From positions 5,477-69,476 of the forward strand of contig JAXGON010000001.1 of the NCBI GenBank assembly GCA_040767425.1: DNA of 64,000 nucleotides. Reading direction: 5' to 3'. The position numbers and the translations under genes are program-made. Shown one piece after another: positions 4,841 to 39,750 of this stretch (the first letter of the stretch is position 1; every line of letters begins with the position of its first letter). This DNA is from Anaerolineae bacterium (lineage in GTDB: Bacteria > Chloroflexota > Anaerolineae > UBA1429). The notes beneath the pieces were generated by a model. The model ran no database searches and was not told the DNA's origin. It saw only the letters and a program-made list of their open reading frames with translations.

Positions 4841-4869
4841 CCGTCAGGACCATGCCAAGGTCCGCAAGG

Positions 4870-5880
4870 CTAGGCTGCGTCGGGCCCAAAGATGTCCTTA
4901 TCGTGGCCAGCCTCGCGCAGCCACTCGACGGTGCGCTGGATGCCCTCTTCTAGGCCCACTCGGGGGCTGTACCCTAGCTCTCGCCGGGCGCGATCGATAG
5001 GATAGATCTGATCGGTGCCCATCACCTCCACGTTGGAGGCGGTCATGGGTGGGCGATCGTTGCGGCCGGTCATGCGATAGTAGCTCTCCCACAGCGAGGC
5101 CAGCAGATAGGCCATCCACCGCGGTTGGCTCTTTTCCGGACGTGAGAGCTGAAGCGCGTCGGCCAGCGCGAAAATGTATTCGCGCCAGGTGACCTCGCTG
5201 CCGTCGGTGATGTTATAGATGCGGCCGGCGGCCTCTTCCTTGTCGCCCGCCAGAATCATGGCGTCGACTAGGTTGCCCACGTAAGTGAGCCCGGCGACAT
5301 GCTTGCCGCCATCATAGAGCTTGAGAGTGCGGTCGCGCAGGCCGTCCAGGATCGCCAGCACCGTTCGCGTTGCCCTCGGCCCGTACACCGTTCCCCGGCG
5401 GATGATCACCGTGGGCAGATTCACCGTCCGGTGGCGGGTGCGCACCAATGCCTCGGCCTCGATCTTGGAGTCGGCATAGCCGAACCCCCTGGGCGAGGGC
5501 GAGACCGTCTCGTCGGCGGGTGTTCCCGGGAACCCGTAGACCTGGGTGGTGCTCAGAAAGACGAACCGTGCCCCGACGCGCGTGGCGGCGCCCAAGACGC
5601 TGCGAACGCCGTCCACATTGGCTTGCTGGAAGGCGATAGCCGGGCCCCAGTCGCGCGATAGCTCGGCGCAGTGGAACACGCGATCGACGCCTTCCGCAGC
5701 GGCGGCCACAGCCGCCTGATCCGTCAGGTTGCCCACGTGCACCTGCACGCCGCGTTTCCTCAGCACGGCCACATCGCTGCTCGGCCGCGCAAACGCTCGA
5801 ACCTCCTCGCCTCGCAATAGCAGAGCATCCGCCAGATGCCAGCCTACCAGGCCAGTGGCTCCCGTCACCAAGCTTTTCAC
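4870..5880 (-). CDS. NAD-dependent epimerase/dehydratase, extended-SDR family.
   Basis: N-terminal MKSLVTGATGLVGWHLADALL matches the GxxGxxG Rossmann motif. Length and family pattern are typical. Confidence 0.8.
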   Translation of the reverse strand: MKSLVTGATGLVGWHLADALLLRGEEVRAFARPSSDVAVLRKRGVQVHVGNLTDQAAVAAAAEGVDRVFHCAELSRDWGPAIAFQQANVDGVRSVLGAATRVGARFVFLSTTQVYGFPGTPADETVSPSPRGFGYADSKIEAEALVRTRHRTVNLPTVIIRRGTVYGPRATRTVLAILDGLRDRTLKLYDGGKHVAGLTYVGNLVDAMILAGDKEEAAGRIYNITDGSEVTWREYIFALADALQLSRPEKSQPRWMAYLLASLWESYYRMTGRNDRPPMTASNVEVMGTDQIYPIDRARRELGYSPRVGLEEGIQRTVEWLREAGHDKDIFGPDAA

Positions 5881-6043
5881 GGCGATGCCTCCCTCCCGGG
5901 TGTTCGGGGGTCCTCGTCGCCAACAGAAACTAGAGTTATATGATATGCTTTATTATATCCAAAGACCAGCTCGGGCGCAAGGGATGTGCGGATCGGGTGT
6001 GACGCGCCTAGGCAATCAACCTTGTGCCCCGGGTCGGCGTTTG

Positions 6044-6072
6044 CCTTGGCTGTCTGGCTGCGCTAAGATAGC
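6044..6072 (+). promoter_or_regulatory. Candidate sigma70-type promoter for the downstream metallophosphoesterase gene.
   Basis: TTGCCT at 6044-6049, a 17-bp spacer, then TAAGAT at 6067-6072, about 20 nt before the ATG at 6091. Confidence 0.3.
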
Positions 6073-6090
6073 GGGTCAGGATACTCTAGG

Positions 6091-6999
6091 GTGGCAATGG
6101 ACTGGCGTGAGCCGAACGAGCGGGAGATGAACGAGGGTAACTGGGAACGGCCCATCACGCGACGAACGCTGCTCAAGCTGGGGCTTGGGGTGGTTGGCGG
6201 TGGCGCCACAGCCATGACGTTCGGCGCCTACTATACGACCTCGGTAGAGCCGGGCTGGATCGAGGTGGTGCGGCGCGATGTGCCCCTGCCTAACTTGGCG
6301 CCCGATCTCGAGGGGCTTACCATCGCTCTCCTGTCCGATCTGCACGTGGGCGCGGTGGTTTCCCCCAGTCACGTGGCCAAAGCGGTTGCGCTCGCGAACG
6401 AACTCGAGCCCGAACTGGCGGCGGTTGTCGGCGACTTTGTGACGGGAGCCGGTGGCTATGCCATCTCATGTGCTCGCGAGCTGGCCGCGCTCAAGGCTCC
6501 TCTGGGTGTCTTTGGCGTGCTGGGCAACCACGACGTATGGAGCGATCCGCGCCTGATCGTCGAGATGCTGACGCGAAACGGCGTGGCGGTGCTTCGCGAT
6601 GAGATCGCCGAGGTGCGACGCGGGGCGGCCACGCTGTCACTGGTGGGGCTAGAGGACTCGGGTCACAGCGGATCGGCCAACGTGACGCCCGAGGTGCTCG
6701 CGCTGCGGTGGCGGGGCAAGATGGCGCTGGCGCGCAAGCTGCTCTCTTCGGCGCAGGGCACCGACCTGACCATCCTGCTGGTTCACAACCCCGACGTGAA
6801 CGAGTTTCTAGAGGACGTGCGCCTGTGGACTTGGCCCTTGCGGCCACACCACGGGGGCCAGATCGCCGCCTTTCTCGCCCCGCTGCTCCCCTCCTCCTTT
6901 GGCCAGTACGCTGCCGCCCATTCAGGGCCCCTCATGCCCGTCTATGTCACCCGTGGCGTCGGCCTGACGCGCCGCGGTCCGGGCCGAACTGCCGCCTGA
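6091..6999 (+). CDS. Metallophosphoesterase of the calcineurin-like YkuE type, with a Tat-type signal.
   Basis: Has an RRTLLKLGLGVVGGGA twin-arginine signal and the motifs LSDLHVG, GDFVTG, GNHD and HHGGQ. The C-terminus looks truncated or frameshifted (see findings). Confidence 0.75.
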   Translation: MAMDWREPNEREMNEGNWERPITRRTLLKLGLGVVGGGATAMTFGAYYTTSVEPGWIEVVRRDVPLPNLAPDLEGLTIALLSDLHVGAVVSPSHVAKAVALANELEPELAAVVGDFVTGAGGYAISCARELAALKAPLGVFGVLGNHDVWSDPRLIVEMLTRNGVAVLRDEIAEVRRGAATLSLVGLEDSGHSGSANVTPEVLALRWRGKMALARKLLSSAQGTDLTILLVHNPDVNEFLEDVRLWTWPLRPHHGGQIAAFLAPLLPSSFGQYAAAHSGPLMPVYVTRGVGLTRRGPGRTAA

Positions 7000-7025
7000 G
7001 GCCTTGTGCTCACTTTGCGCTCGAT

Positions 7026-7277
7026 CTAGGCCTCACTCTCGCCGAGATACGGTCGCTCCAGCGGCGCGATGTCATCCTCGTCAAACTGGGCCGGTTTGTG
7101 CGCATCGATGTCTAGCACCCCTCGAACCAACCCATCCTTGATCAGTGGCAATACGATCTCGCTCTGCGAACGCGGGTCGCAGGCGATGTGGCCGGAAGAG
7201 GCGTGGACATCCGGCACGACCACGGGCTTGCGTGTCCGAACTGCGTGCAGGCAGACCCCCTGGCCGTTCGGCAACAT
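7026..7277 (-). pseudogene. C-terminal remnant (about 83 aa) of a GAF-domain free methionine-(R)-sulfoxide reductase-like gene (fRMsr/YebR family).
   Basis: The ORF encodes ...GQGVCLHAVRTRKPVVVPDVHASSGHIACDPRSQSEIVLPLIKDGLVRGVLDIDAHKPAQFDEDD. This matches the C-terminal half of the GAF fRMsr family, including the GHIACD...SEIVLPL...GVLDIDS motif. An in-frame TGA lies 18 nt upstream, and none of the three upstream frames encodes the missing roughly 80-aa N-terminal half. Confidence 0.6.
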
Positions 7278-7329
7278 TATCTTCTGAGTGATGGATCAGC
7301 CTTCGGTAACATTATCATTTGGGTGGCCA
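7264..7329. repeat. Tandem pair of a low-GC repeat of about 30 bp (copy A 7264-7293 is degenerate; copy B 7299-7329). A third copy lies at 27461-27487.
   Basis: B (CCTTCGGTAACATTATCATTTGGGTGG) is identical over 27-28 nt to 27461-27487. A (CGTTCGGCAACATTATCTTCTGAGTGATGG) is a diverged copy 35 bp away and contains the ATG and first codons of the GAF remnant. Confidence 0.5.
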
Positions 7330-7375
7330 CACAGCAACCATCTCACACCCTTGGCGCTTGCGAGCAACCCTGACC

Positions 7376-7404
7376 TTGACCGCGAGCTGCTCCCTTTCTA
7401 TCAT
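7376..7404 (+). promoter_or_regulatory. Candidate promoter for the beta-glucosidase gene.
   Basis: TTGACC at 7376-7381, a 17-bp spacer, then TATCAT at 7399-7404. An AAAGGAG Shine-Dalgarno lies 7 nt before the ATG at 7440. Confidence 0.3.
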
Positions 7405-7439
7405 GAATCGAGCAGAGCAAAGCAGTAAAGGAGCTCGTC

Positions 7440-8777
7440 ATGAACGCCAAGGGCGCTTTTCCAGAGGGATTCGTGTGGGGCACCGCCACCGCCTCGTTCC
7501 AGATCGAGGGGGGGAGGACCGAGCGAGGGCGCTGCATCTGGGATGACTTTTGCGACTGGCCGGGCAAGGTCTTCCAGGGTCATTCGGGCGATGTGGCCGA
7601 TGACCACTATCACCTCTTTCGTGATGATGTGGCGTTGATGGCCAGGATGGGCCTTGGGGCCTATCGCTTCTCGATCTCCTGGCCGCGGGTGCAGCCTGAC
7701 GGCCAGGGCGACGTCAACGCCAAGGGGCTCGATTTCTACGACGCGCTGGTCGATGAGCTGCTCGAACACGGCATCGCACCCTATATCACCTTGTACCACT
7801 GGGATCTACCCAGTGCCCTGCAGAGCATTGGGGGTTGGGTGGTGCGCGATACCACCGCACGCTTCCGCGACTATGCGGCGATGGTGGCCGAACGCCTGGG
7901 CGACCGCGTTTCGCACTGGATCACACACAACGAGCCTTGGGTAGTGGCTTTTCTGGGCAACCTCATGGGGGTTCACGCCCCGGGCTGGCAGGATATGGGC
8001 GCGGCCTTGCAGGTGGCGCATCACTTGTTGTTATCCCACGGCATGACGGTGCCCGTGCTGCGCGACGCGTGTGGCGAGGACGCCCAGATCGGCATCACCC
8101 TGAACCTCTCGCCGATGTATGCCGCGACCGATAGCGAAGATGATCGCCAGGCGCAACGCATTGCCGATGGCTTTGCCAACCGCTGGTTCCTGGATCCGGT
8201 GCTGCGGGGCGCCTATCCCGAGGATATGTGCGCCCTGTACGACTGGCGCCTGCCCAACGTGGCCCCTGGCGATCTGGATGTCATCCACACGCCCATCGAT
8301 TTCCTCGGCATCAACAACTACTCGCGACAGGTGGTCACCCGACGCGATGAAGGGTTGTTTGGCTATGGCACCGTGCGGCCCGAGGGGCAATACACGGCCA
8401 TGGACTGGGAGGTGTTCCCGCAAGGGTTGGAGGACCTGTTGGTGCGGCTGGGGCGTGACTACCCAGGCACCGACTTTTATATCACCGAGAACGGCTCATC
8501 CTGGGAGGATCGGGTCAGCGAGGATGGCCGGGTCCATGACCCGCAGCGCGAGCGCTACCTGCGCGCGTACCTGCAGGCCTGCGCCCGGGCGATTGCGCAA
8601 GGCGTGCCGCTGCGCGGTTACTTTGCTTGGTCGTTGTTGGATAACTTTGAGTGGGCCTATGGGTATAGCCGACGATTTGGCCTGGTGTATGTGGACTTTG
8701 AGACCCAACAGCGCATCATCAAGGATAGCGGCGAGGCCTATGCGCGCATCGCTCGCGCCAACGCCTGGGATGCATAA
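7440..8777 (+). CDS. bglA: GH1 family beta-glucosidase.
   Basis: Contains FVWGTATASFQIEGG, the catalytic acid TLYHWDLP...NEP, the nucleophile motif ITENG, and a C-terminal FAWSLLDNFEWAYGYSRRFGLVYVD. Confidence 0.9.
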   Translation: MNAKGAFPEGFVWGTATASFQIEGGRTERGRCIWDDFCDWPGKVFQGHSGDVADDHYHLFRDDVALMARMGLGAYRFSISWPRVQPDGQGDVNAKGLDFYDALVDELLEHGIAPYITLYHWDLPSALQSIGGWVVRDTTARFRDYAAMVAERLGDRVSHWITHNEPWVVAFLGNLMGVHAPGWQDMGAALQVAHHLLLSHGMTVPVLRDACGEDAQIGITLNLSPMYAATDSEDDRQAQRIADGFANRWFLDPVLRGAYPEDMCALYDWRLPNVAPGDLDVIHTPIDFLGINNYSRQVVTRRDEGLFGYGTVRPEGQYTAMDWEVFPQGLEDLLVRLGRDYPGTDFYITENGSSWEDRVSEDGRVHDPQRERYLRAYLQACARAIAQGVPLRGYFAWSLLDNFEWAYGYSRRFGLVYVDFETQQRIIKDSGEAYARIARANAWDA

Positions 8778-8795
8778 CGGCAAGGAGAAGGGGCG

Positions 8796-10139
8796 ATGCA
8801 GCTAGCGCGGCTCAAGGAGCGGATCTGTCAGGCGATCGAGGCTCGTCACGATGACATCGTGGCGCTCGGCGAGGACATCCTGCGGCATCCGGAGCTCGGT
8901 TTCAAGGAGCATCGCACGGCGGGGCTGGTGGCCGAGCTCTTTCGCTCGCTGGGAATCCCCACCGAGACCGGCGTCGCGGTCACTGGCGTCATCGGCCGAC
9001 TGAGCGGGCGTGGGCAAGGCGCTACCGTGGCCTATATGGGCGAGATGGACTCGGTGCTGGTCCATGGGCACCCCTTTGAGGATCCAGAGACCGGGGCAGC
9101 CCACGCTTGCGGACACCACGCCCAGATCGCCAACCTGGCGGCCGTGGCCTACGGTCTGGTAGAAAGCGGCGCCATGGCGGAACTCGATGGCGATGTGCTC
9201 CTCATGGCGGTGCCGGCCGAAGAGTTCGTCGAGATCGACTATCGCTTGAGCCTGCGCGACCAGGGCATCATCCGCTTCTTGGGCGGCAAGCAAGAGCTCA
9301 TCCGGCTGGGCGCGCTTGAAGGGGTCGATATCGTCCTTTCGACGCACCAGGGGGCGCGCGCAGAGGGCGGCAGCTTTTCGGCGGGTGGGGCCTGCAACGG
9401 CTGTGTGGTCAAGCGGGCTCGCTACCTGGGCAAAGCGGCCCACGCAGGCGGGGCTCCCCACGAAGGGATCAACGCCTTGGCGGCGGCCACCGTGGCTCTG
9501 CACGCCATCGATGCCAACCGCGAGACGTTCCGCGATGACGACCATATCCGCGTGCATCCGATCATGACCCGCGGCGGCGACCTGGTGAACGTGATCCCGT
9601 CCGATGCGCGGCTGGAGATGTACGTCCGTGGGGCCAGCACCGAGGCCATCGCGGCGGCGGCCAAGCGCGTGGATCGCGCCCTGGTGGCGGGGGCGTTGGC
9701 GCTGGGAGCCGAGGCCGAGATCGAGAGCATCCCCGGCTACCAGCCGCGACGGCCTTGCAGCGAGCTGGCGCGGCTGTATCAGGCCGAGGCTGTGGCCCTG
9801 GTAGGAGAGGAGGGCTGGTGGGATAGTGGATTCGGCGCGGGTTCCACCGACCTGGGCGACGTGAGCTTGCTGATGCCGGTGCTAGAAGCGGTGGCCAACG
9901 GGTGCCGCGGCATCGGGCACGGCGCCGACTTTTTGGTGCATGATCCGGACCTGGCCTATGTCCTGCCGGGCAAGGTGGCAGGGCGGTCGGTGGTGGAGCT
10001 CTTGGCCAACGACGCCGCCCGTGCGCGCGCCATCGCCGAGGCGTACCAGCCACCCATGACGCGGGACGCTTACCTGGAGCATATGGCCTCGCAGGAGATG
10101 CTGTACCGGTGGCGGCCGGGGTTGCCGGCGGGGGAGTAG
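8796..10139 (+). CDS. M20 family peptidase/amidohydrolase (M20D-like).
   Basis: ORF of 447 aa with the metal-ligand motifs HACGHH...EE and the M20 dimerisation-domain pattern. A GAAGGGG Shine-Dalgarno precedes the ATG. Confidence 0.8.
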   Translation: MQLARLKERICQAIEARHDDIVALGEDILRHPELGFKEHRTAGLVAELFRSLGIPTETGVAVTGVIGRLSGRGQGATVAYMGEMDSVLVHGHPFEDPETGAAHACGHHAQIANLAAVAYGLVESGAMAELDGDVLLMAVPAEEFVEIDYRLSLRDQGIIRFLGGKQELIRLGALEGVDIVLSTHQGARAEGGSFSAGGACNGCVVKRARYLGKAAHAGGAPHEGINALAAATVALHAIDANRETFRDDDHIRVHPIMTRGGDLVNVIPSDARLEMYVRGASTEAIAAAAKRVDRALVAGALALGAEAEIESIPGYQPRRPCSELARLYQAEAVALVGEEGWWDSGFGAGSTDLGDVSLLMPVLEAVANGCRGIGHGADFLVHDPDLAYVLPGKVAGRSVVELLANDAARARAIAEAYQPPMTRDAYLEHMASQEMLYRWRPGLPAGE

Positions 10140-10165
10140 GCCGTAGGCCGAAAGTGCAGGGCGGG

Positions 10166-10600
10166 TTACTCGTCGAGGGATGGCTTTCGGCGCAGGGCCT
10201 TGGTGCGGCCATGGTGTCGCTTGCTACGTAGGCGACGTTCGCGGGAGCCATGGGTGGGGCGCGTGGCGATGCGGCGCTTTGGCGGCTGGACCGCCTGGTA
10301 CAAGAGCCGCTGCAGACGCTCGACGACTTCTTGGCGGTTCCGCCACTGGCTGGGCGTGCTATCGGCCACCAGATGCAGGACGCCGCTGCTATCGATATGG
10401 CGCGCCAGCCGCTGTAGGACACGCTCGCGGATCGGCTCCGGCAGACTGGGGGAGCCGGCCACATCGAACAGCAGCTCCACGCGGCTGGCGGTGCGGTTCA
10501 CATTCTGGCCGCCCGGCCCCGATGCGCGACTGAACCGGAAGCTGACCTCGGCTAGCGGGATGGCCAGGCCGGAGCCAATCGGCAGCGTCTCCTCGGTCAT
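10166..10600 (-). CDS. arfB: Alternative ribosome-rescue factor ArfB (peptidyl-tRNA hydrolase, YaeJ family).
   Basis: Has the GGQ motif in SGPGGQNVNRTASRVEL and a basic C-terminal tail, KRRIATRPTHGSRERRLRSKRHHGRTKALRRK. Confidence 0.8.
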   Translation of the reverse strand: MTEETLPIGSGLAIPLAEVSFRFSRASGPGGQNVNRTASRVELLFDVAGSPSLPEPIRERVLQRLARHIDSSGVLHLVADSTPSQWRNRQEVVERLQRLLYQAVQPPKRRIATRPTHGSRERRLRSKRHHGRTKALRRKPSLDE

Positions 10601-12579
10601 GGCGTCGGTTCTTGAGCGACGCGTGAGAGCAGTCCGCAGAGGTCAGCGGCGTCGCCGTGCTGTACGATGGTGAGCTGGTCGCTGGCGTCCAGGGCTTGGT
10701 AAGCAGCGCGAGGCCAATTCATGCCGTTGCCCGCATCTAGCGCGCGCAAGGCGAGAGGGCGCGGCGCCACGGCGGCGGCCACGGCCGGCAGCAGCCCATA
10801 GCGGGCCCAGCCGGGCGCGAAGAGAGGCCCCAGGTAGGCGCGCTCATCGTCCCACGCCAGGGCGCCCAGATCGGCATACACCGCGGACACCGCCGGATCC
10901 AGCGCGCCCGCCAGCAACGACCAGGCCCCTGCACCACGAATGCCTGCTATGGTGATCGGCACCCCCGGCCACCTGGCCCGCATCCATGCCAGGGCGGTCA
11001 GCACGTCCCGTATCTGTTCCCCCAAGATCGGCGGATTGTAGGTGGCCCAGAACCAGTCGCCGTCGCGGCGGGCGAGGGCTTCGGGCGGGGCCGCTACAGT
11101 TCCCAAGGGCGAGATGGTCAGCACGGCGCGGTCGCCCGCCAGGGCGGCCTCTAGCCACGCGGTGGGATGTCCCGCTAGGTCTAGCAAGCCCTCCACGCCG
11201 GCGGGGTGCAGCAATAGGAGCGCCGACTTGACCTGGGTTGGCTGCCACAGCCGCCCTGGCACCAGGGTGCCGCGAGCGGGGTATCGCAGGGTGATCGGCC
11301 GCCCCAAGGGCGACTCGACCAGGTTCGTGTGGTCCTCTTGGACGGCACAGACTTCTGGTGCGGGCGGGACGATGCTCAGGATATGCTGCAAGCGGGTACG
11401 CATACGGAGGGTGTGCTGTCGAGCCGACGTCGCATCGCTCGGCATCTCCGCCTTGGCAGCCGCCAAAGCCCTCTCCCGCAAGGCGCGCATGGATTCCGGC
11501 GCGCGCTGATAGCCATCGGGCAGCTCTCCACGGGGGAATACCCGCAACTGCTCGTCGGGATGCTCGGCGTAGGGTCTCTCGGCCGCCACAGCTTCATCCG
11601 CGGTCTGCAAGAACCAGCGCGCGAACCAGCGGTAGACGTGGGCGCGGCTGGCGGCGTGATAGTTATGGGGCGCATCCTCTTGAACACAGTGAACACGGTC
11701 GGTGGCATCATAGAGGGCATAGATGCTGCGAATGGCGGGATACTCGACCCTAGGCGTATTGACCGTCCAGTCGCCCGTGGCCGAGACCAGCAGGAGCGGC
11801 CGTGGCGCCGCCAGCGCGGCGATCTCGACGTTGTGGGTGTCTGTTCTCAAGCCCGGAGCATTCTCGCACACGCAGCCGCCCTGGTAGTGCGCCGAGATCA
11901 TGTTCACGGGCGCCAACACGGCGATACGTGGGTCCAGCGCGCCCAGCATGAACGTTTGGGTGCCGCCGCCCGAGGCGCCCGGGGCATCCCGGCGGTTTGG
12001 GTCGACATAGGGTAGGGCTTGGGGCAGTAAGTCGGCGGCTCGGATGCTGTCCTGCACCTGGAGGGCCATGGGCTCAGCCCCCAGAGGGCTGCCTCTCTGG
12101 ATGCATGGCGGTGCTCTAGCACCTGCAGGCCGTTGTAGCCGACCATGTCATACGCCAGAGCAGGCGCCATCCCCATGCGCGCAACTGATGCAGCGGGCCC
12201 GCACCGACCCGCGCGGCCCGTCTTCCAGGCGCCCGTGCTCCCAATGCCCATGGGGGTTGAGGATGGCGGGGATGCGCCCCTCAGGCTCGGGAGGGCGATA
12301 CAGATTGCCTGTGCACAGAAACCCAGGTCGGCTCTGGAACCAGACCCGCTCGACCACATAGCCTTCGCCCTCTCCGCAGGGGCTGACGTGGGCGTCCAGC
12401 GGGCAGGCCTGCCCGTCCTGCTCGAGTCCCAGGACGGTTCGTAGATGGTCCCGCAGGTAGGTGGAGCGGGCCTCCCAGGCGGCCAGATCGGTGGGCAGAT
12501 CGACGGCATAGGCCTGGTCCAGCGACCGATGATGCCAATGGCGGGCGTCGCTCATGGGGTTCTCTGGTTGGCTGGCCAT
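10597..12579 (-). pseudogene. Alpha/beta-hydrolase family gene (acetyl-xylan-esterase-like/Abhydrolase_7-like N-terminal domain plus a second hydrolase-like domain), interrupted. ORFs 12148..12579 and 10597..12069 lie in the same frame separated by a TGA, and the intervening segment reads better in another frame.
   Basis: The N-terminal piece ends ...PAILNPHGHWEHGRLEDGPRGSVRARCISCA. The downstream piece resumes MALQVQDSIRAADLLPQALPYVDPNRRDAPGASGGGTQTF (nucleophile GASGG) and later NMISAHYQGG...DAPHNYH. Between them the alternate frame reads RMGMAPALAYDMVGYNGLQVLEHRHASREAALWGLS, which looks like genuine protein. An RBS GGAGGG sits before the ATG at 12579. Confidence 0.6.
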
Positions 12580-12600
12580 CAGCCCTCCTTCGATGCGAAC

Positions 12601-12627
12601 GCGGGCCGCAACAAACGTGCGGCCCGC
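12601..12627 (-). terminator. GC-rich hairpin between the MIPS stop and the hydrolase start: a candidate terminator or attenuator with no clear U-tract.
   Basis: GCGGGCCGC, a 9-nt loop, then GCGGCCCGC (perfect 9-bp stem). On the minus strand it is followed by the RBS GGAGGG and the ATG of the hydrolase. Confidence 0.35.
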
Positions 12628-12642
12628 GCTTCCGACGGCGCT

Positions 12643-13716
12643 CTAGTCGCCGTTGGCGATCCAGGCTTCGAGCTGCCGCCGCGCCTCGTCATCGTCGAGC
12701 TGATGGGGCGGCGACTTCATAAAGTAGGCCGAGGCGGGCACGACCGCCCCCGCCAGTCCACGGTCCTTGGCGATCTTGCAGCAACGTACCGCATCGATGA
12801 CCACGCCGGCCGAGTTAGGCGAGTCCCACACCTCGAGCTTGAGCTCTAGACGCAGCGGTATCTCTCCAAAGGTGGTGCCATTCATGTGGATATAGCAAAA
12901 CTTGCGGTCGGTCAACCACGGCACATAGTCACTAGGGCCCACATGGACGTGGTCGGGATCGATTCGATAGTCTAGCTGGCTAGTCACGGCGTCGGTCTTG
13001 CTGATCTTTTTCGATTCGAGCCGCTCGCGCTCGAGCATGTTGAAAAAGTCCATGTTGCCGCCAAAGTTGAGCTGATAGGTATCATCCAGGCGGACGCCGC
13101 GGTTCTGGAACAGGCGCGTCAGCACGCGATGGGTGATGGTAGCGCCGAGTTGGCTCTTGACGTCGTCGCCGATGATGGGCAAGCCGCGCTCACGGAAGCG
13201 CTCCTGCCAATAGGCCTCGCGGGCGATGAACACGGGGATGCAGTTGACCATGCCGCACCCTGCGTCCAGGATTTGCTGGACGTACCATTTGGTGGCCATC
13301 TCGGAGCCAACAGGCAGAAAGTTGACCACGACGTCAGTCTGGGTATCCCTCAGGATCTGCACGATGTTGTCGGTCGGTCCAGGCGCCTTCTCGATCCTTT
13401 GGCTCAGGTACTTGGCAATACCATCATGGGTCATGCCCCGATGAACGGGGATCCCCATGGGCGGCACGTCGGCGAACTTGATAGTGTTATTGGGCCCCGA
13501 CCAGATCGCCTCGGAGAGGTCTTTGCCAACCTTGGCGGCGTCGATATCAAAGGCGGCCGTGAACTCGATGTCCCCCACGTGATAGTTGCCGAGGCGGGGG
13601 TGCATCAGCCCGGGGATGAACTGATCCTCAGGCGCATGTTGGTAGAACTGGACGCCCTGCACCAAGGCGGCGGCGCAGTTGCCCACGCCGATGATGGCCA
13701 CGCGAACTTTGGGCAT
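12643..13716 (-). CDS. Myo-inositol-1-phosphate synthase (archaeal/bacterial short form).
   Basis: N-terminal [25 protein letters not shown] gives the Rossmann fold, and the family pattern holds throughout (NFGGNMDF, catalytic region). 357 aa. Confidence 0.85.
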
Positions 13717-13790
13717 AGTTTCCCCCTACTGTGGATGTGATAGCTTCAAGCAAAATACTGCGCCGATAGTAGGCGCGCTCTTGCAGGTCG

Positions 13791-15005
13791 TCAAGACCTC
13801 CAGGCCCGCTGGATCTTGCGCGCCGCGCGAGCAATGTCCAGAATATCCTCTCTTTCTGATAGCAGGATACTCTGCATCAACCAAAGCCCCCGACGGCCAG
13901 CCTCTTCCGCCACAGGGCAGGAGGCCTGGGGTGGTTCGGGCAGGCCCAGTCGGCGGGCGATATAGGCTGAGCGCTCCACGATGACGCGCGTGCGATGCAA
14001 CGGCTCACCATAGCCCGTCACGATGGGGATCCCCTCGGCCTGGATCGCCCGCGCAAAGTCCGCGGCGGAGCGCCCGCCAAAGGCGTCGGGCTGATACCAC
14101 ATCTTGAAGATATGATAGGCGTTGCGGGTGACGCGGGGGTCGCCTGGCAGTGGATCCAGCCCGTCGATATCGGCCAGGGCCTCGCGGAGGGTGGCGGCCC
14201 GCGCCGAGCGCACGGCGGCCTGCTCCTCCAGACGCTCAAGCTGGACGCGGATGATCGCGGCCTCCCACTCGGCCAGGCGATAGTTGCTGGCTAGGGTGTG
14301 GTGTTCGTACCAACCGCCGGTCCGGGATCGGCCTACATTGTGGACGGACCAGCATCGTTCGGCCAGATCGTCGTCGTTCGTGAGGATGATGCCGCCCTCG
14401 CCGCCGGTGACGTTCTTGCTGGCCTGAAAGCTAAAGGTGCCCATTTGGCCGATGGCCCCCACCGCGCGCCCCTGCCAGCGCGCGCCATGGGCCTGGGCCG
14501 CGTCCTCGATGACGACCAGCCCGTGGCGGGCCGCGATCTCGTTGATGGCGTCCATATCGGCTGGCTCGCCGCCGATGTGGACGGGTAGGATCGCCTTGGT
14601 GCGAGCGGTGATCAACGGCTCGATGCCAGATGGATCCATGTTCCAGGTGTCGGGTAGCACATCCGTGAAACGAGGGATCGCGCCCACCAACAAGGGTGTG
14701 TTCGCGGTGGCGATGAATGTGTAAGGCGTCGTGATCACCTCGTCGCCCCAATCGATGCCAGCGGCGCGAAGGGCCACCTCGATGGCGATGCTGCCGTTGC
14801 ACACGGCGATGGCGTGCTTGGCGTCGTGGGCCTGAGCGAACTCGGCCTCCATGGCGCTGACTTTTACGCCGCTCTGCGACCACCACCGACCAGAGTGAAC
14901 GACATCGGTGATCGCCTCGACCTCGCGTTGGTCCCAGATGGGCCAGCGCGGAAACGGCCGACTGCGGAGCGGCGTCCCGCCGTCGATAGCTAGCTTTTGT
15001 GGCAT
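13791..15005 (-). CDS. DegT/DnrJ/EryC1/StrS family PLP-dependent aminotransferase.
   Basis: Contains the FSFQASKNVTGGEGG lysine motif, the CNGSIAIEVALRA pattern and the TTPYTFIATAN pattern. It sits immediately upstream of the MIPS gene on the same strand with a 74-bp gap. Confidence 0.85.
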   Translation of the reverse strand: MPQKLAIDGGTPLRSRPFPRWPIWDQREVEAITDVVHSGRWWSQSGVKVSAMEAEFAQAHDAKHAIAVCNGSIAIEVALRAAGIDWGDEVITTPYTFIATANTPLLVGAIPRFTDVLPDTWNMDPSGIEPLITARTKAILPVHIGGEPADMDAINEIAARHGLVVIEDAAQAHGARWQGRAVGAIGQMGTFSFQASKNVTGGEGGIILTNDDDLAERCWSVHNVGRSRTGGWYEHHTLASNYRLAEWEAAIIRVQLERLEEQAAVRSARAATLREALADIDGLDPLPGDPRVTRNAYHIFKMWYQPDAFGGRSAADFARAIQAEGIPIVTGYGEPLHRTRVIVERSAYIARRLGLPEPPQASCPVAEEAGRRGLWLMQSILLSEREDILDIARAARKIQRAWRS

Positions 15006-15114
15006 GTCACTTTCTCCTGTACCAAGGACGCGATGCTAGGTCATCGTAGCCGCTTGGGACCCCTTAGGTCAACTTGGTGCGATTCTGTGGCTGCGCTAGA
15101 ATGCTTCAAAGGAG

Positions 15115-15702
15115 ATGACCATGAACGATGAGCGACTGGCTACTATGATCCGTCTGCGAGATGGCCGCGAGGCCCGCGTGCGCCCACTCGAGCGCGAGGA
15201 TGCCGAGACGCTGGGGGATTTCTTTTGTGGGCTCTCGGAAAAGACCCGCAGCACGTACGGTCCGCACCCGTTTGGGCGCGATACGGCCGCCGAGCTGTGC
15301 GCCGCCGCGGACGACCCGCGCACGATTCGATTCGTCGCCGTGCTGGAGGATGAGACGCCCCACGCCGAGATCATCGCCTATATGATCCTCTCGCGGCACA
15401 TCTGGGATGGCGATCGCAGCCGCTATGGCGAGACGGTCCCCTGGGAGACGACAGCTTGCCTGGCGCCCGTGGTGGCCGATGCTCACCAGGGCCAAGGCCT
15501 GGGTAGCGCCATGGGGCGTCACGTGCTGGCCTGCGCGCGGGCCCTGGGTCTTTCGCACGTGATTTTGATGGGCGGCGTGATGGATGAGAACCCGCGCGCA
15601 CGGCGCGTCTATGAAAAGCTGGGGTTCGAGTTCGCGCGCAGCTTTGAGACCGAGGCTGGCGGCCAGCGTCGCCTTAACCATGACATGGTAGTGACGCTCT
15701 AG
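15115..15702 (+). CDS. GNAT family N-acetyltransferase.
   Basis: Acetyl-CoA binding motif QGQGLGSAMGRH...A. An AAAGGAG Shine-Dalgarno lies immediately upstream. Divergent from the DegT gene. Confidence 0.75.
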   Translation: MTMNDERLATMIRLRDGREARVRPLEREDAETLGDFFCGLSEKTRSTYGPHPFGRDTAAELCAAADDPRTIRFVAVLEDETPHAEIIAYMILSRHIWDGDRSRYGETVPWETTACLAPVVADAHQGQGLGSAMGRHVLACARALGLSHVILMGGVMDENPRARRVYEKLGFEFARSFETEAGGQRRLNHDMVVTL

Positions 15703-15875
15703 GGCCTGGGCAGTCAGCCCTGGCGGGATCTGTGGCTATCAGGGGGCTGCTGAGGGTGGTTCCCAGCCGACAAAAGACTAGCGCCGATGCCTTGGGTTGT
15801 CTGGTAGCGAGCATGCTCTCTTTGCGACGCAGAGTGGGCCTGCCCAGTGTGGTGTGGTAGAGCGAGGGGGAATAC

Positions 15876-16889
15876 GTGAGCCATCTGGTGGCGTTCGCCA
15901 GTCTGCCGTTTGGGATGCGAGGTGGCGAGTATCCCGTGGCAGTCGGCGACGGGCAGGTGCTGGTGCGCGTCGCCGACCAGCGATTCAACCCCTTTCTCTC
16001 GGTCACCTCGCGACCCGAGCTGGCCCAGAGCTTGCCCCAAGGGCGTATCGATGATCGGTTCACCAGCTATACCTGGTACGATCACCCCTTTCTCCTGCAA
16101 GTGGTTTTTGGGAGGAACGTGGCTGCGCTGGGGTCGATCAGCTCCATGGCGACGGTGGTGGAGCCCCTCCCGCGGCGCAGCCTCCGAGGCAGTCCCACTG
16201 TGTTGGACGAGCGCATGGAGCGGTTTGGGCAGCGAGCCATGCACGCCTGCAACACGGTCATTGCGGCGGTGCGGCGCAGGGCGCATCTGTATCAGCTTCT
16301 CGATCTCACCCGTGAGGACATCGAGATTACCATTCGCGACGACGCTGGCGCGGTGCTACGACACGATCCCGTGGAGGGCATCGTGGCCGAGCGTCAGGCC
16401 CGCGAGACTGAATCCTTTGATCTGGTAGATCGCGATGACGCCTGGTATCAGGAGTTGCGAGAGCATCTTGCGGAAGCTAGCGACTATTCGCTGGCTGAGG
16501 ATCTGTTGCTAGAGGCCGAACGCGCGTTGGCTCAACGTTTTGCGCGGCAGGCGGTGGCCACTTGCTATAGCGCCCTGGAGGCGGCGGCCGCGAGCCTATT
16601 GACGGCGCGCATGAAAGGGCATGGCCGTAGCGATCGGGAGATCGACGCTACGCTGGCGGGCAAGGGGCTGGCCTCCAAGCTCGATAGTCTGCTGCGTACG
16701 TATACGGGCTATAGCTTGCGGCGCGACAACCACGAGCTTTGGCACGAATTCTACGACTTTTTGGCCTTGCGGAACGACGTCGTGCACCGTGGGCTCTGTC
16801 CCAGCAACGAGCGGGTACGCGAGGCGATGCGCATCACGCGCAACATTATGGACTGGCTCGTTATGGTGACCGCCCGTGTAGGGACATGA
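15876..16889 (+). CDS. Hypothetical protein whose C-terminal region resembles a HEPN-like helical domain (R-x4-HRG motif).
   Basis: 337-aa ORF with a GTG start. I recognise no family for the N-terminal roughly 200 aa. The C-terminal roughly 120 aa is predicted helical and contains ...FLALRNDVVHRGLCP..., an R-x4-H motif characteristic of HEPN RNase domains. Confidence 0.5.
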   Translation: MSHLVAFASLPFGMRGGEYPVAVGDGQVLVRVADQRFNPFLSVTSRPELAQSLPQGRIDDRFTSYTWYDHPFLLQVVFGRNVAALGSISSMATVVEPLPRRSLRGSPTVLDERMERFGQRAMHACNTVIAAVRRRAHLYQLLDLTREDIEITIRDDAGAVLRHDPVEGIVAERQARETESFDLVDRDDAWYQELREHLAEASDYSLAEDLLLEAERALAQRFARQAVATCYSALEAAAASLLTARMKGHGRSDREIDATLAGKGLASKLDSLLRTYTGYSLRRDNHELWHEFYDFLALRNDVVHRGLCPSNERVREAMRITRNIMDWLVMVTARVGT

Positions 16890-16923
16890 TGCGGGCCGTA
16901 CGTAAAGACCTGTCGCGGGAGTC

Positions 16924-16952
16924 TTGACCCCGAACAAACGTTCCACTATAAT
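16924..16952 (+). promoter_or_regulatory. lexA promoter with an embedded SOS (LexA) box.
   Basis: TTGACC (16924-16929), a 17-bp spacer, then TATAAT (16947-16952). The spacer contains CGAACAAACGTTC (16931-16943), a GAAC-N4-GTTC Cheo-type LexA operator. A GAGGAG Shine-Dalgarno follows at 16974-16979 and the ATG at 16986. Confidence 0.6.
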
Positions 16953-16985
16953 GGGCGCAAGCTGGAGCTAGTGAGGAGTTCGGCC

Positions 16986-17642
16986 ATGCCCAAGCGTAAG
17001 GGGTTGTCCAAGCGGCAGCAGCGCATGCTCGACGCCATTCGCAGCTTTCTGGACGAGAATGGATATCCCCCCACCATTCGCCAGCTATGCGACATGGCGG
17101 ATATCTCTTCCACGTCCGTGGCTAGCTACAACCTCGACATTCTCCAGCGCCAGGGATTCATCACCCGTGACCCCGACGTCTCCCGCGGGATTCGCTTGGT
17201 GGAGAATGGCGAGGCGTCGCGGCGCGTCGGGCAGGTGGCGGTGCCGCTTCTGGGGGTGATTGCTGCTGGTGAGCCCATCCCCGTGCCCGATTCGGACTTT
17301 TCGCAAGCTGATTATGAGCTTATCGACCTGGCACGAGACCTGGTGCCCGATGCCGAGGATGTGTACGCCCTGGAGGTACGTGGTACCTCGATGATTGACG
17401 CCCTCATCGGTGATGGCGACATCGTCCTGATGCGGCATCAGACCAACGCCCGCAGCGGCGAGACGGTGGCCGCCTGGCTCAAGGACGAGAAAGCGACCAC
17501 CCTCAAGACGCTGTACTGGGAACAGAATGGGTCCGTGGCTCGCCTACAGCCCGCCAACCCCACCATGGAGCCGATCTATGTGCATGCCCGTGACCTCGAG
17601 ATTCAGGGACGCGTCATCGGGGTGGTCCGTCGGCTCGGCTAG
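16986..17642 (+). CDS. lexA: LexA repressor.
   Basis: N-terminal wHTH (GYPPTIRQL), a cleavage-site region, the S24 peptidase Ser in EVRGTSM, and the Lys dyad partner (TLKTL). 218 aa from MPKRKG. Confidence 0.85.
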   Translation: MPKRKGLSKRQQRMLDAIRSFLDENGYPPTIRQLCDMADISSTSVASYNLDILQRQGFITRDPDVSRGIRLVENGEASRRVGQVAVPLLGVIAAGEPIPVPDSDFSQADYELIDLARDLVPDAEDVYALEVRGTSMIDALIGDGDIVLMRHQTNARSGETVAAWLKDEKATTLKTLYWEQNGSVARLQPANPTMEPIYVHARDLEIQGRVIGVVRRLG

Positions 17643-17655
17643 GCCGCCGTTGGCC

Positions 17656-21168: not shown

Positions 21169-21446
21169 ACAATCCTCCAGACAAAGCGGACAGCTATGGA
21201 ATCAGGAGATCGGGCTGGCGCGCAGGAGCGAGGAATCCTGCGACGGCCTCAGCATAAACGGAAGATGCCCGCTGGGCAAGCCGCCGGCGCCGCAAAGGGC
21301 GGGCAACCGGTGCCTTGCACCAATGGTTCCGTCGTCGCTGGCGGCGAGAGAAACGGGCCAGTGGTGGCGGGCCTGGCGCAATGGCAGACGCAGCAACACC
21401 TCCTGGCCCCAAGATCGGGTCAGGAGGTGTTGCGAGTATCACGCCA

Positions 21447-21519
21447 AGCCACCCTCGAGACTTGAACTCGAAACCTGGCGCTTACGAAGCGTCTGCTCTG
21501 CCGATTGAGCTAGGGTGGC
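21447..21519 (-). tRNA. tRNA-Thr (anticodon CGT). The 3' CCA is not encoded.
   Basis: The minus strand folds as a cloverleaf: acceptor GCCACCC/GGGTGGC, D-arm GCTC-AATCGGCA-GAGC, anticodon arm GACGC-TTCGTAA-GCGCC (one A.C mismatch), T-arm TCGAG-TTCAAGT-CTCGA, discriminator T. Confidence 0.65.
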
Positions 21520-21591
21520 GCCGCCGCGCCCGAGGGCGCAGAGCGGAGCCAGTATAGCGGGCTGGCGTGCCACCGTCAAATCGCGAGCGGA

Positions 21592-35504: not shown

Positions 35505-38186
35505 CTAGGCTTCCAGCGTCGCCAGGCGCTCTTCCAGGCGCTGCTTGCGTTCCTGGTGCGAGGCCAGCTTGTCCCGCTCCCGCTGTACCACCTCGGCCGG
35601 CGCCTTGCTGCAGAACCCCTCGTTGCTCAACAGCTTTTCCGAGCGTGCAATCTCGCCCTCGGCGGCCTCGATCTCGCTACGGAGACGCTCCCTTTCACGA
35701 TCAAGATCGACCAGATCCGCTAACGGCAGATAGCACTCGATGCTGCCCACGACCAGGGTCAGGGCCTGGGCGGGCTTGTCCTCAAGCTTCGAGGCGATTT
35801 CTAGCCGTGATGGCTCCACGCGAGCCAGGCTAGAGAGCACCCCGCGGATCCCCTCAAGCCACGGCGTCTGGTCCCCCGCCACGACGATGGCCGCGATCCA
35901 CCGCCCCGGTTCCACATCATACTCGGCGCGGGCGTTGCGGATAGCCCGCACCAACGCAAAGAGGGCATCGACCTCAGCCATGGCGCGGGCATCGGAGGGG
36001 CCCGCCTGTGGCCACGGGGCCACGATCAGCGCGTCGCCCCGATGGGGCAGGTACTGCCACGCCGCCTCGGTCACGAACGGCATGAACGGGTGCAGCAGGC
36101 GCAAGCTGCCCACGAGCACATAGACCAGCACGCGCCGCGCCGCATCGGCGCTGGCAGGGTCCTGGCTTCGGAGGCGCACCTTGCTGGCCTCGATGTACCA
36201 GTCACAGTACTCGCCCCACAGGAACTCGTAGAGCTGTCTCCCGGCCTCGCCGATCTGGAACGCGTTCACCAGGCGCGATGTCTCCTCGATCAGCTGGTGA
36301 TAGCGGCTCACGATCCAGCGATCCAGCGGATCCTTCAGGGTGGCGGGATCCAGCGGTTCCTCTGACGGGGTGAATGCCTCCGGCTCCGCGCCCAGATTGC
36401 CGAGCACATACCTGGCCGCCTGCCAGATCTTGTTGCAAAAGTTGCGGTTCGATTCCACGCGTTCCATGGCCAGCTTCATGTCGTTGCCTGGCGTGGAGCC
36501 CGTCAGCAGGGTAAAGCGTAACGCGTCGAGCCCGTACTCGTCGATTACCAGCAACGGATCGTACTGGTCCACATCCGGCAACGACTTGCTGATCTTGTTG
36601 CCGTTGCGATCTCGCACCAGCCCGTGTAGGTAGACGGTATGGAACGGCAGCTCGCCGGTCATCTCTAGGCCCATCATCACCATGCGGGCGACCCAGAAGA
36701 ACAGAATGTCATAGCCGGTCTCCATGACCGACGTCGGGTAAAAGTAGCGCAGATCGGCCGTATCGTCGGGCCAGCCCAGCGTCGAGAACGGCCAGAGCGC
36801 CGACGAGAACCAAGTGTCGAGCACGTCGGGATCCTGCGTGAGCTCGGTGCCGCCACACTCGGTGCAGGTGGTGGGATCCTCGCGCCCCGTCATCATGGCG
36901 CCACAAGCATCGCAGTACCACACGGGGATGCGGTGCCCCCACCAAAGCTGGCGGGAGATGCACCAGTCGCGGATGCCCTCCATCCAATCGGTATAGACCT
37001 TGGCAAAGCGCTCGGGCACGATGCGTAGGCGACCATCGCGCACAGCCTGAAGGGCCGGCTCTGCCAACGGCTTGGCCTTGACGAACCACTGGGTCGAGAT
37101 GCGTGGCTCGATGACGGTATCGCAGCGCTGGCAGTGCCCCACGCTGTGATGGTACGGCTCGATCTTGACCAGATCACCAGCCTCGTCGAGCTGAGCGACC
37201 AACGCTTGGCGGCAATCTAGCGTGCTCATACCCGCAAAGGGGCCGGCGGCATCGCTCATGGTTCCCTGATTCGTCATCACGTCGACGCTGGCCAGGCCGT
37301 GTCGCTGGCCGATCTCATAGTCCACCGGGTCATGAGCGGGGGTGACCTTGACGGCGCCTGTGCCGAACTCGGAATCCACCGCCTCATCGGCGATGATGGG
37401 CACCTCGCGCTGAACGAACGGGATCACCACCTGCTGCCCGATGAGGTTGTGGTAGCGGTCATCGTCGGGATGCACCGCCACGGCGGTATCACCCAGGATC
37501 GTCTCTGGGCGAGTGGTGGCCACCACGATGGATTGCGAGCGATCGGGCGTCCAGTAGCGCACGTACCACAGGTTGGTGTCGGTCTCGGCGTGCTCCACCT
37601 CGAGATCGGAGATGGCCGTGCCGCAGCGGGGACACCAGTTCACCAGATAGAGGCCGCGGTAGATCAGTCCCTGGTCATACAAGCGCACAAAGGCCTCCCG
37701 CACGGCACGGGACAGGTCCTCCTCCATGGTGAACCGTTCGCGCTCCCAGTCGCACGAGATGCCCAAGCGGCGTTGCTGCTGGGTGATGCGGGCGTGATAG
37801 ATGGCCTTCCACTCCCACACGCGCTCGATGAACCCGTCGCGGCCCAGGTCGTGCCGAGAGAGCCCTTCGCGGGCCAGCTCACGCTCAACCACGTTCTGGG
37901 TGGCAATGCCGGCGTGATCGGTGCCTGGCACCCACAGCGTCGGCTCGCCCAGCATACGGTGGTAGCGGATCAGGGCGTCCTCGATGCTGGACATGATGGC
38001 ATGGCCCAGATGCAAGGCGCCGGTCACATTGGGAGGCGGCATCGAGATGACAAACGGCTTGCGCTCGGGGTCGACGCTAGGGCGAAAGAACCCTCGCCTC
38101 TCCCACCACTCGTAGAGCGGCTGTTCGATCAGCCCAGCGTCATAGATTTTGGGCATCTCTGACGGAAGCGGTGCTCTGGGATCCAT
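35505..38186 (-). CDS. valS: Valyl-tRNA synthetase.
   Basis: Has the HIGH-region PPNVTGALHLGHA, the KMSKS-like KISKS, an editing domain and a C-terminal coiled coil. A GGAGAGGAGA Shine-Dalgarno precedes the ATG at 38186 (MDPRAPLPSEMPKIYD). Confidence 0.9.
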   Translation of the reverse strand: MDPRAPLPSEMPKIYDAGLIEQPLYEWWERRGFFRPSVDPERKPFVISMPPPNVTGALHLGHAIMSSIEDALIRYHRMLGEPTLWVPGTDHAGIATQNVVERELAREGLSRHDLGRDGFIERVWEWKAIYHARITQQQRRLGISCDWERERFTMEEDLSRAVREAFVRLYDQGLIYRGLYLVNWCPRCGTAISDLEVEHAETDTNLWYVRYWTPDRSQSIVVATTRPETILGDTAVAVHPDDDRYHNLIGQQVVIPFVQREVPIIADEAVDSEFGTGAVKVTPAHDPVDYEIGQRHGLASVDVMTNQGTMSDAAGPFAGMSTLDCRQALVAQLDEAGDLVKIEPYHHSVGHCQRCDTVIEPRISTQWFVKAKPLAEPALQAVRDGRLRIVPERFAKVYTDWMEGIRDWCISRQLWWGHRIPVWYCDACGAMMTGREDPTTCTECGGTELTQDPDVLDTWFSSALWPFSTLGWPDDTADLRYFYPTSVMETGYDILFFWVARMVMMGLEMTGELPFHTVYLHGLVRDRNGNKISKSLPDVDQYDPLLVIDEYGLDALRFTLLTGSTPGNDMKLAMERVESNRNFCNKIWQAARYVLGNLGAEPEAFTPSEEPLDPATLKDPLDRWIVSRYHQLIEETSRLVNAFQIGEAGRQLYEFLWGEYCDWYIEASKVRLRSQDPASADAARRVLVYVLVGSLRLLHPFMPFVTEAAWQYLPHRGDALIVAPWPQAGPSDARAMAEVDALFALVRAIRNARAEYDVEPGRWIAAIVVAGDQTPWLEGIRGVLSSLARVEPSRLEIASKLEDKPAQALTLVVGSIECYLPLADLVDLDRERERLRSEIEAAEGEIARSEKLLSNEGFCSKAPAEVVQRERDKLASHQERKQRLEERLATLEA

Positions 38187-38470
38187 CGGGTCTCCTCTCC
38201 GGTCAGGGCTATGCTGACCGCACAACAAAAAAGGCTCCTTCGTCTTCTTGGAGACGAAAGAGCCCTTCCGCGGTACCACTCCAGTTCGATGGCGGTCACC
38301 AGGCACACCACCGCGCTCGATGGCTGTAACGGGCGTTCCCGGACTGGCCTACCTATTCAGCCAGCCTGCTCCCAGGCGACTTTGGGCTGCGCTTGCCGCG
38401 AGGGGCTTTCAGCCGGTGACCCCTCTTCTCTACCAGCGCCCGACAGCCTACTCCTCCTGCTCACTGCAGT
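38187..38470 (-). promoter_or_regulatory. T-box riboswitch leader of valS, with its promoter at 38478-38506 and an intrinsic terminator.
   Basis: On the minus strand: promoter TTGACC-17-TACAAT; a stem-I region containing GGGGUCACC, which carries a GUC Val codon followed by a purine; the conserved T-box AACUGGAGUGGUACCGCGG (forward 38264-38282); and a terminator GGCUCUUUCGUC-loop-GACGAAGGAGCC plus UUUUUUGUU (forward 38224-38265). Confidence 0.6.
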
Positions 38471-38737
38471 TGACCAGATTGTAGCATGGGGGCGGCCGGC
38501 GGTCAACCTGAGGTTTCGAACGGAAAGGGGAGCACCCCTGGGCGACAAAACAACGGGTTCCACCGAGCGAGAGGCGCCTTCGCCGCTGCAGAGGTCCCCG
38601 AGATCAGGTTGCCGGGACGCGGCCAGTGGCACCCGCCCGCTCTCTTGCATATAATAGACTCAGCAAGCAAGGGTGCTTTCGCGACCGAGGCCGGTTTTTC
38701 TGTGGTAGACTCAGAAACATGGTGAAAAGGAACAACG

Positions 38738-39742: not shown

Positions 39743-39750
39743 GCCGAGCT

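Follow-up and report, generated by a model that had tools for sequence, protein, structure and literature searches.

A carbohydrate-esterase gene divided by a 206-nt cluster of derived indels in one Chloroflexota assembly: a probable local assembly error

Why would a gene leave its reading frame and return to it about 110 nt later? The question is raised by a 64,000-nt stretch of an Anaerolineae bacterium (assembly GCA_040767425.1, contig JAXGON010000001.1, positions 5,477 to 69,476 of the forward strand; 64.5% GC), which we refer to throughout as the window. Here an alpha/beta-hydrolase gene, related to serine carbohydrate esterases, appears as two open reading frames (ORFs) with a stretch of conserved protein between them in another frame. 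A first-pass annotation had read this as one gene broken by two compensating frameshifts. The parts of the locus are as follows, with P0121 and P0001 denoting two intact homologues.

10597..12579, minus strand: the complete esterase locus, a 1983-nt coding sequence that is disrupted; P0121 (660 aa) and P0001 (662 aa) can be aligned to it over their full lengths
12148..12579, minus strand: N-terminal ORF of the ORF listing, 143 aa, correct to Ile131 and then out of register (SCAHGDGACSGV)
12070..12185, minus strand: conserved protein in the alternate frame, corresponding to P0121 residues ~134-171 (BLASTP, 36 of 38 identical, E = 3e-20)
10597..12069, minus strand: C-terminal ORF of the ORF listing, 490 aa, with first residues MALQVQDSIRAADLL..., carrying the catalytic Ser, Asp and His and the C-terminal domain

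The two ORFs lie in a common frame with a gap of 78 nt, or 26 codons, between them, and both begin with ATG. The first of these, at 12579, has a Shine-Dalgarno sequence (AAGGAGG) upstream; as deposited, translation from it ends after 143 residues, at ...GSVRARCISCAHGDGACSGV and the TGA at 12148-12150. Read in the frame of the ORFs, the 26 gap codons translate to HGRLQRPAGARAPPCIQRGSPLGAEP, for which BLASTP found no in-register match to the homologue (E = 0.1, off-register). Read in the alternate frame, the gap translates to ...ARMGMAPALAYDMVGYNGLQVLEHRHASREAALWGLSP..., the stretch that matches P0121 so closely; the conserved residues 134-171 are thus encoded by neither ORF. For this block the first-pass annotation had proposed the motif ARC..FAR.G..AF.YDM.GY.D...ALWG. 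It fits the family consensus that emerges when 117 full-length homologues (identity down to about 38%) are aligned, and we used the same alignment to measure conservation.

We joined frame A, frame B and frame A again into a 661-aa reconstruction and used it as the query for homology searches. It matched thousands of full-length homologues of ~650-700 aa, the best of them P0001 with 84% identity over 100% of the length; the ORF pattern at this locus is therefore not due to chance. The closest intact copy is P0121, encoded on the JGI metagenome contig L002, which matches window positions 12579-9819 at 98.5% nucleotide identity. Its esterase gene is intact at 1983 nt, the same length as window 10597-12579. 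Two further relatives, L001 and L003, are ~87.7% identical to the window in nucleotides and 84-86% in amino acids, and both carry the gene in one frame; L003, the Chloroflexota metagenome-assembled genome (MAG) DAIRUQ010000042, is collinear with window 3967-21716. Taken together, intact homologues span 86-40% identity. With full-length homologues and an intact L002 gene to compare, the earlier claim of a single hydrolase gene that departs from its frame for about 110 nt is borne out. By homology, the two ORFs and the alternate-frame stretch are one 1983-nt gene, predicted to encode a serine esterase of ~660 aa.

The broken form, by comparison, was found once. The 490-aa and 143-aa pieces exist as separate NCBI proteins (P0002 and P0122, respectively), and neither occurs in any other assembly among 15 billion proteins. 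At 90% identity, P0002 clusters with one protein besides itself, the intact P0121, which is also the sole additional member across the clusters of both fragments at that level. A search for an independent assembly of the same strain gave closest matches of 86% among genome contigs and 75% among metagenome contigs, and exact-protein look-ups of P0002 and of the products of the two neighboring genes, arfB and inositol-phosphate synthase, returned no contig match.

Could the cell nevertheless make the full-length enzyme from the sequence as deposited, either by a programmed +1 and then -1 frameshift or by reading the TGA at 12148-12150 as selenocysteine or by readthrough? The common frame of the two ORFs and the open alternate frame across the gap would suit such recoding. 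However, programmed frameshifting is excluded because the segment occupies a single frame in all relatives, even in the one that is 99% identical: the shifts are absent from L002, L001, L003 and the 117 further homologues. Nor do the shift sites, ATC AGT TGC GCG and GAG CCC ATG, contain a known slippery motif; neither an X XXY YYZ heptamer nor a CUU-UGA-type site is found there. The TGA, which the first-pass annotation had offered as a single nonsense codon in an alternative reading, lies in an out-of-register frame that matches no homologue, and it aligns to nothing. No Cys or Sec column stands opposite it, in keeping with the earlier doubt about selenocysteine. Because the 26 in-frame codons are not the conserved ones, the nonsense, selenocysteine and readthrough readings all fall. 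Even a perfectly shifted product would still carry other lesions at invariant positions, described below, and we regard recoding of any kind as exceedingly improbable.

What, then, has happened to the sequence? We defined the lesions by base-level alignment to L002 and give them here on the coding strand.

12187/12186, minus strand: site a, ATCCAG to ATCAG (-1, CC to C)
T-run 12183-12184, minus strand: site b, GTTTGC to GTTGC (-1, TTT to TT)
12183..12187, minus strand: sites a and b together, ATCCAGTTTGCG to ATCAGTTGCG, two 1-nt deletions relative to all relatives
12164..12166, minus strand: site c, +3 nt CGC (or equally GCC at 12163-12165), an extra Pro in MGMAALAYD
12130..12131, minus strand: site d, junction of a 3-nt deletion (ACA), YNDSLQ to YNGLQ, removing Asp150 and Ser151
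C-run 12070..12072, minus strand: site e, CCCC to CCC (-1), where the conserved frame returns
12051 and 12048, minus strand: site f, two substitutions, N178D and G179S
12014..12024, minus strand: site g, CTGCTAAGCCTA to CTGCCCCAAGCCCTA (+2 and +1; T to CCC plus one extra C), LLLSLP to LLPQALP
11981..11991, minus strand: site h, a compensated -1/+1, CGCTTGGGATGCACGGGC to CGCCGGGATGCCCCGGGC, RLGCTG to RRDAPG, with the ORF still open

There are nine indel events, all within 12187-11981. Insertions and deletions amount to 7 nt each, so that the length is unchanged, and the same tract holds about five substitutions. The frame excursion itself is the product of three separate 1-nt deletions. Sites a and b shift the conserved frame by +1, with the loss of Gln132 and Phe133, and site e restores it directly before Met172 (ATG 12067-12069). 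All three deletions are homopolymer contractions, and 6 of the 7 inserted bases are C on the coding strand. The first-pass annotation thus had the shifts right in reading-frame terms, +1 followed by -1, and placed them nearly correctly: the upstream change, at 12183-12187, is slightly 5' of its estimate of 12176-12180, while the downstream one, in the C-run 12070-12072, is just 3' of the lower end of its 12072-12080. Its model of two compensating indels was too simple, since six indel events accompany the three 1-nt deletions in the comparison with L002. Sites c, d and f lie inside the interval that it had flagged, although it had missed them; sites g and h, with four indel events between them, lie outside, the damaged tract running on to 11981. 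The gaps recur when the tract is compared with L001 and L003. Over the same tract the L002-like sequence reads ATCCAGTTTGCG ... GAGCCCCATGG ... CGCTTGGGATGCACGGGC, and the intact gene encodes the peptide ...CIQFARMGMAAL... over the damaged segment.

The distribution of these changes bears directly on their origin. The nine indel events are confined to 206 of the 2761 nt aligned with L002 (7% of the compared length), whereas the remaining ~2555 nt contain 23 substitutions and 0 indels (Fisher p about 6e-11). The bases that separate the lesions all match L002, without even an ordinary synonymous change. With L001 and L003 as outgroups, every difference in the tract is derived in the window: L002, L001 and L003 share one state at every lesion position except one, where the window is unlike any of them. 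In other words, the lesions exist, they are clustered and derived, and they are confined to one record.

These observations leave little room for gradual decay of a pseudogene under relaxed selection, although frameshifts, a premature stop and the replacement of conserved residues are what a decaying gene would contain. At the density seen in the tract, roughly 78 indels would be predicted in the rest of the gene; none was seen. Outside the tract the gene differs from L002 by 19 substitutions, and those that fall on the window lineage comprise 8 synonymous and 3 nonsynonymous changes, implying that purifying selection acted on the gene until essentially the present; lesions are not dispersed, and selection is not relaxed. 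The flanking operon genes are intact as well. We consider gradual decay very unlikely. The first-pass annotation had left the choice between sequencing or assembly indels and a decaying gene; the former is the option that we favor as probable, and the latter is disfavored by lesions restricted to 7% of the length with purifying selection elsewhere.

A separate feature of the gene is a run of six substitutions relative to L002 within 29 nt (window 11727-11755), in a gene where the general level is about 1%. Their polarity is mixed, some being derived in the window and some in L002, so that the segment looks like a small recombination or strain-mosaic tract. This pattern hints at strain heterogeneity in the esterase gene, which could have troubled an assembler.

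How severe is the damage for the protein? The closest solved structure is that of BT1017 from Bacteroides thetaiotaomicron (PDB 6GOC), to which P0121 aligns with residues 23-382 against 117-468 (E = 2.6e-46). BT1017 is the pectin methylesterase on which a family of serine esterases active on rhamnogalacturonan-II was founded; it has a GxSxGG motif, and its triad is S282/D352/H388 (PMC7939467). In the window, GASGGG aligns with GGSGGG of BT1017 and so conforms to GxSxGG; between P0121 and 6GOC, SATGDW aligns with SDGGDW and APHNY with EKHDF, which supplies the Asp and the His. The predicted triad in P0121 numbering is S203, D270 and H305, all encoded within the 490-aa ORF, and its spacings of 70 and 36 after alignment gaps match those of S282/D352/H388. 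The near-invariant RLGCTG that is altered at site h stands just ahead of the GASGGG motif.

11971..11973, minus strand: TCG codon of the predicted nucleophile Ser in GASGGG (Ser203 of P0121), aligned with Ser282 of BT1017

With this similarity over the catalytic module, the enzyme appears to belong to a family known in kind, the BT1017-like serine esterases, which we take to be CAZy family CE19. Pfam assigns it less clearly. The 490-aa ORF scored 14.4 bits against AXE1 (PF05448; cut-off 21) and 20.3 bits against GCE_fung (PF22244; cut-off 27), both below the gathering threshold, and in the intact relatives L001 and L002 the same two families gave weak or faint matches only. Homologues are often annotated as 'acetylxylan esterase' or 'dienelactone hydrolase'. 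The C-terminal part of the enzyme is a subject of its own: residues ~400-660 of P0121 (window 10597-11400) have no Pfam or NCBIfam match and lie outside the 6GOC alignment, and yet these ~260 residues are conserved across many phyla in the match list. A GxxGxG... pattern suggests that they may form a second hydrolase-like domain.

The lesions strike at positions where this family does not vary, deleting or replacing conserved residues and inserting others where the length is invariant. Among the 117 homologues, no gap occurs in residues 130-151 or 184-210 of P0121. Specifically, the MGMAALAYD segment, which receives an extra residue at site c, shows neither gap nor insertion in any of them, and none is gapped in the LLLSLP segment altered at site g. 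Asp150, Thr200, Gly201 and Ser203 are 100% conserved, Ser151 (98%), Asn178 (97%) and Cys199 (96%) are nearly so, and Gly198 stands at 82%. Site h replaces Gly198, Cys199 and Thr200 and destroys the strand running into the nucleophile elbow. Here P0121 has the expected R-[IL]-G-C-T-G; the window encodes RRDAPG and departs from the pattern only because of the lesions.

The same residues speak against a functional split enzyme, in which the 143-aa and 490-aa products would assemble into an active hydrolase. Both ORFs do start with ATG, and the catalytic Ser, Asp and His are all in the 490-aa piece. However, the conserved 37-residue core (residues 134-171) is in neither product, the 143-aa piece ends with 12 out-of-register residues, and the RLGCTG before the nucleophile is destroyed. 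Each full-length homologue in our searches is a single chain, ~650-700 aa long or more. A working split enzyme is thus hardly credible.

Is the esterase the only damaged gene, or is the whole contig of poor quality? Twelve other L003 proteins map onto the window, each in a single frame, and the sole split match to L003 traces to an ORF delimited from stop to stop, in which the first 105 codons are non-coding sequence upstream of the gene. Eighteen further window ORFs have whole, distinct Pfam domains or architectures. Among the genes checked, we found no second broken gene. The other frame-changing gaps relative to L003 or L001 are intergenic (6027; 21177-21405; 13730-13756; 15725) or lie in divergent stretches, where they compensate one another and amount to alignment noise, and a globally error-prone (long-read) assembly is accordingly unsupported. 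One of these intergenic intervals, 21177-21405 between dnaE and the tRNA-Thr gene, has four single-base gaps, three of them in homopolymers, and in every case it is the window that lacks a base present in L003; this is probably ordinary non-coding divergence, though all four run in the same direction.

The sequence of the tract offers no cause for the damage either. It has no unusual GC content, tandem repeat or notable hairpin. Tblastn finds one esterase locus only, so the window holds no donor copy, and the mutant 11-mers of the tract have no meaningful second copy in the window. We also considered templated mutagenesis (from a quasi-palindrome or direct repeat) and gene conversion within the window. 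Two inverted repeats, I8 and I3, touch sites c and h; they do not predict the new bases, and both mechanisms were rejected.

Two explanations remain to be weighed, and everything else is jointly very improbable. The one we favor, with a probability of roughly 0.7, is a local assembly, gap-filling or consensus error. Under this explanation, a Chloroflexota genome would carry a normal single gene for a serine carbohydrate esterase of ~660 aa; the consensus of a patch of ~206 nt would have been corrupted in one deposited assembly, dividing the gene call into artificial ORFs of 143 aa and 490 aa; and the true sequence of the organism would be L002-like over the patch, with the enzyme intact. We infer a technical rather than a mutational cause from several features. 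The patch is short, it occurs in a single assembly, and all its differences are derived relative to several independent relatives, as expected of a local error. The homopolymer contractions, the one-strand base bias of the insertions and the equal gains and losses also look technical. Such errors are on record at a comparable frequency: in one 1.13-Mb MAG, 13 local assembly errors supported by no read were found, roughly one per 100 kb, and they introduce faulty gene sequences into public databases (Chen, Anantharaman, Shaiber, Eren and Banfield 2020, Genome Res., PMC7111523).

Several points weigh against an assembly error. The artefact is deduced from the deposited consensus and not from reads. 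Short-read assemblers based on de Bruijn graphs, such as MEGAHIT and metaSPAdes, build contigs from the k-mers of reads and cannot easily invent nine indels; had the contig come from one of these, molecules bearing the lesions would probably have been present. The indels of each local group also add up to a multiple of three, and those of the whole tract to zero, a balance expected neither from random error nor from unselected mutation. Finally, the GC content, repeats and hairpins of the tract give no reason for a gap in coverage.

The other explanation takes the lesions as real: one complex mutation, or a burst of events, would very recently have scrambled a patch of ~200 bp and left a fresh pseudogene allele in the strain. 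Error-prone repair synthesis over a break or gap, or the integration of a damaged DNA fragment, are candidate causes, and even a frame-restored protein would then be without invariant residues near the nucleophile. The sequence stands in the public record, with both fragments called from it as proteins, and the rarity with which k-mer-based short-read assemblers create indels counts here in favor. The three homopolymer contractions are also a product of replication slippage, and purifying selection elsewhere in the gene, together with identical sequence between the lesions, fits a very recent event. On the other hand, we know of no bacterial mutational process that leaves about one indel per 23 nt over 200 nt with the flanks untouched. 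The lesions were seen in one assembly only, we found no inverted or direct repeat that could template them and no donor copy within the window, and local assembly errors are a priori far more frequent in MAGs (PMC7111523). We therefore hold a real event to be possible but doubtful. Its most specific form is a natural 'mutation shower', in which a single round of error-prone repair, or one integration of damaged DNA, would have introduced nine indels and several substitutions into ~200 bp of an otherwise selected gene among wild Chloroflexota and been caught before further divergence; this seems somewhat less likely still. If true, the patch would show localized, indel-rich hypermutation of bacteria in an unusually clean natural form, and any real origin would make the locus a modestly interesting natural case of clustered indel mutagenesis.

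If the lesions are instead an assembly error, as we favor, the main relevance of the locus is to annotation quality. Protein collections already contain the spurious 143-aa and 490-aa products as separate entries; the organism almost certainly encodes one esterase of 660 aa. To list the locus as a pseudogene or as a candidate for recoding would be wrong, or at least unsupported. Neither an artefact nor a pseudogene allele is a new phenomenon.

The esterase is flanked by genes whose arrangement is shared with relatives.

12643..13716, minus strand: inositol-3-phosphate synthase gene, upstream of the esterase
10166..10600, minus strand: arfB, encoding a ribosome-rescue peptidyl-tRNA hydrolase, downstream of the esterase

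The order inositol-3-phosphate synthase, esterase, arfB, M20 peptidase is also found in L001 and is kept in L003. The esterase stop overlaps the arfB start (ATGA, 10597-10600), as it does in L001 and L002, an overlap that suggests possible translational coupling of the ribosome-rescue factor to the carbohydrate esterase.

Elsewhere in the window, a scan at the Rfam gathering thresholds gave a T-box leader as its only match (38247-38473, minus strand; RF00230, 101.8 bits). It lies upstream of a 948-codon ORF (35505..38348), presumably an aminoacyl-tRNA synthetase gene. The sole tRNA gene is tRNA-Thr(CGT), at 21447-21519 on the minus strand. The plus-strand region 39556-43338 encodes a very large multidomain cell-wall protein (~1220-1260 aa) in which CarboxypepD_reg, SpoIID, Amidase_2 and Big_7 domains are combined. 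Ahead of its likely start, the open frame shares ~190 nt with the end of the endonuclease V gene.

Comparison with known systems places the locus as follows. BT1017 and the window protein share a catalytic alpha/beta-hydrolase module that can be aligned over 360 residues, with an identity of only about 30%. Unlike BT1017, the window esterase has no DUF3826 domain and instead carries the uncharacterised C-terminal domain of ~260 aa, and its host is a member of the Chloroflexota. As in programmed frameshifting (prfB +1, dnaX -1) and at selenocysteine TGA codons, conserved coding continues in another frame or past an in-frame TGA; unlike those systems, the window has no conserved shift, slippery site or Cys/Sec alignment. 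Frameshifted bacterial pseudogenes likewise show a premature stop after a frameshift and intact orthologues in close relatives, and are annotated as two ORFs or as 'frameshifted'. Their lesions, however, are spread, while those of the window are packed into 206 nt with no relaxed selection elsewhere. The local MAG assembly errors of Chen et al. (PMC7111523) were defined by the absence of a perfect read match, whereas here the consensus sequence alone is used, and an indel-rich pattern is not described in that paper. In other respects the likeness is close: like those errors, the window shows a short deviant consensus and one corrupted gene in an otherwise clean contig.

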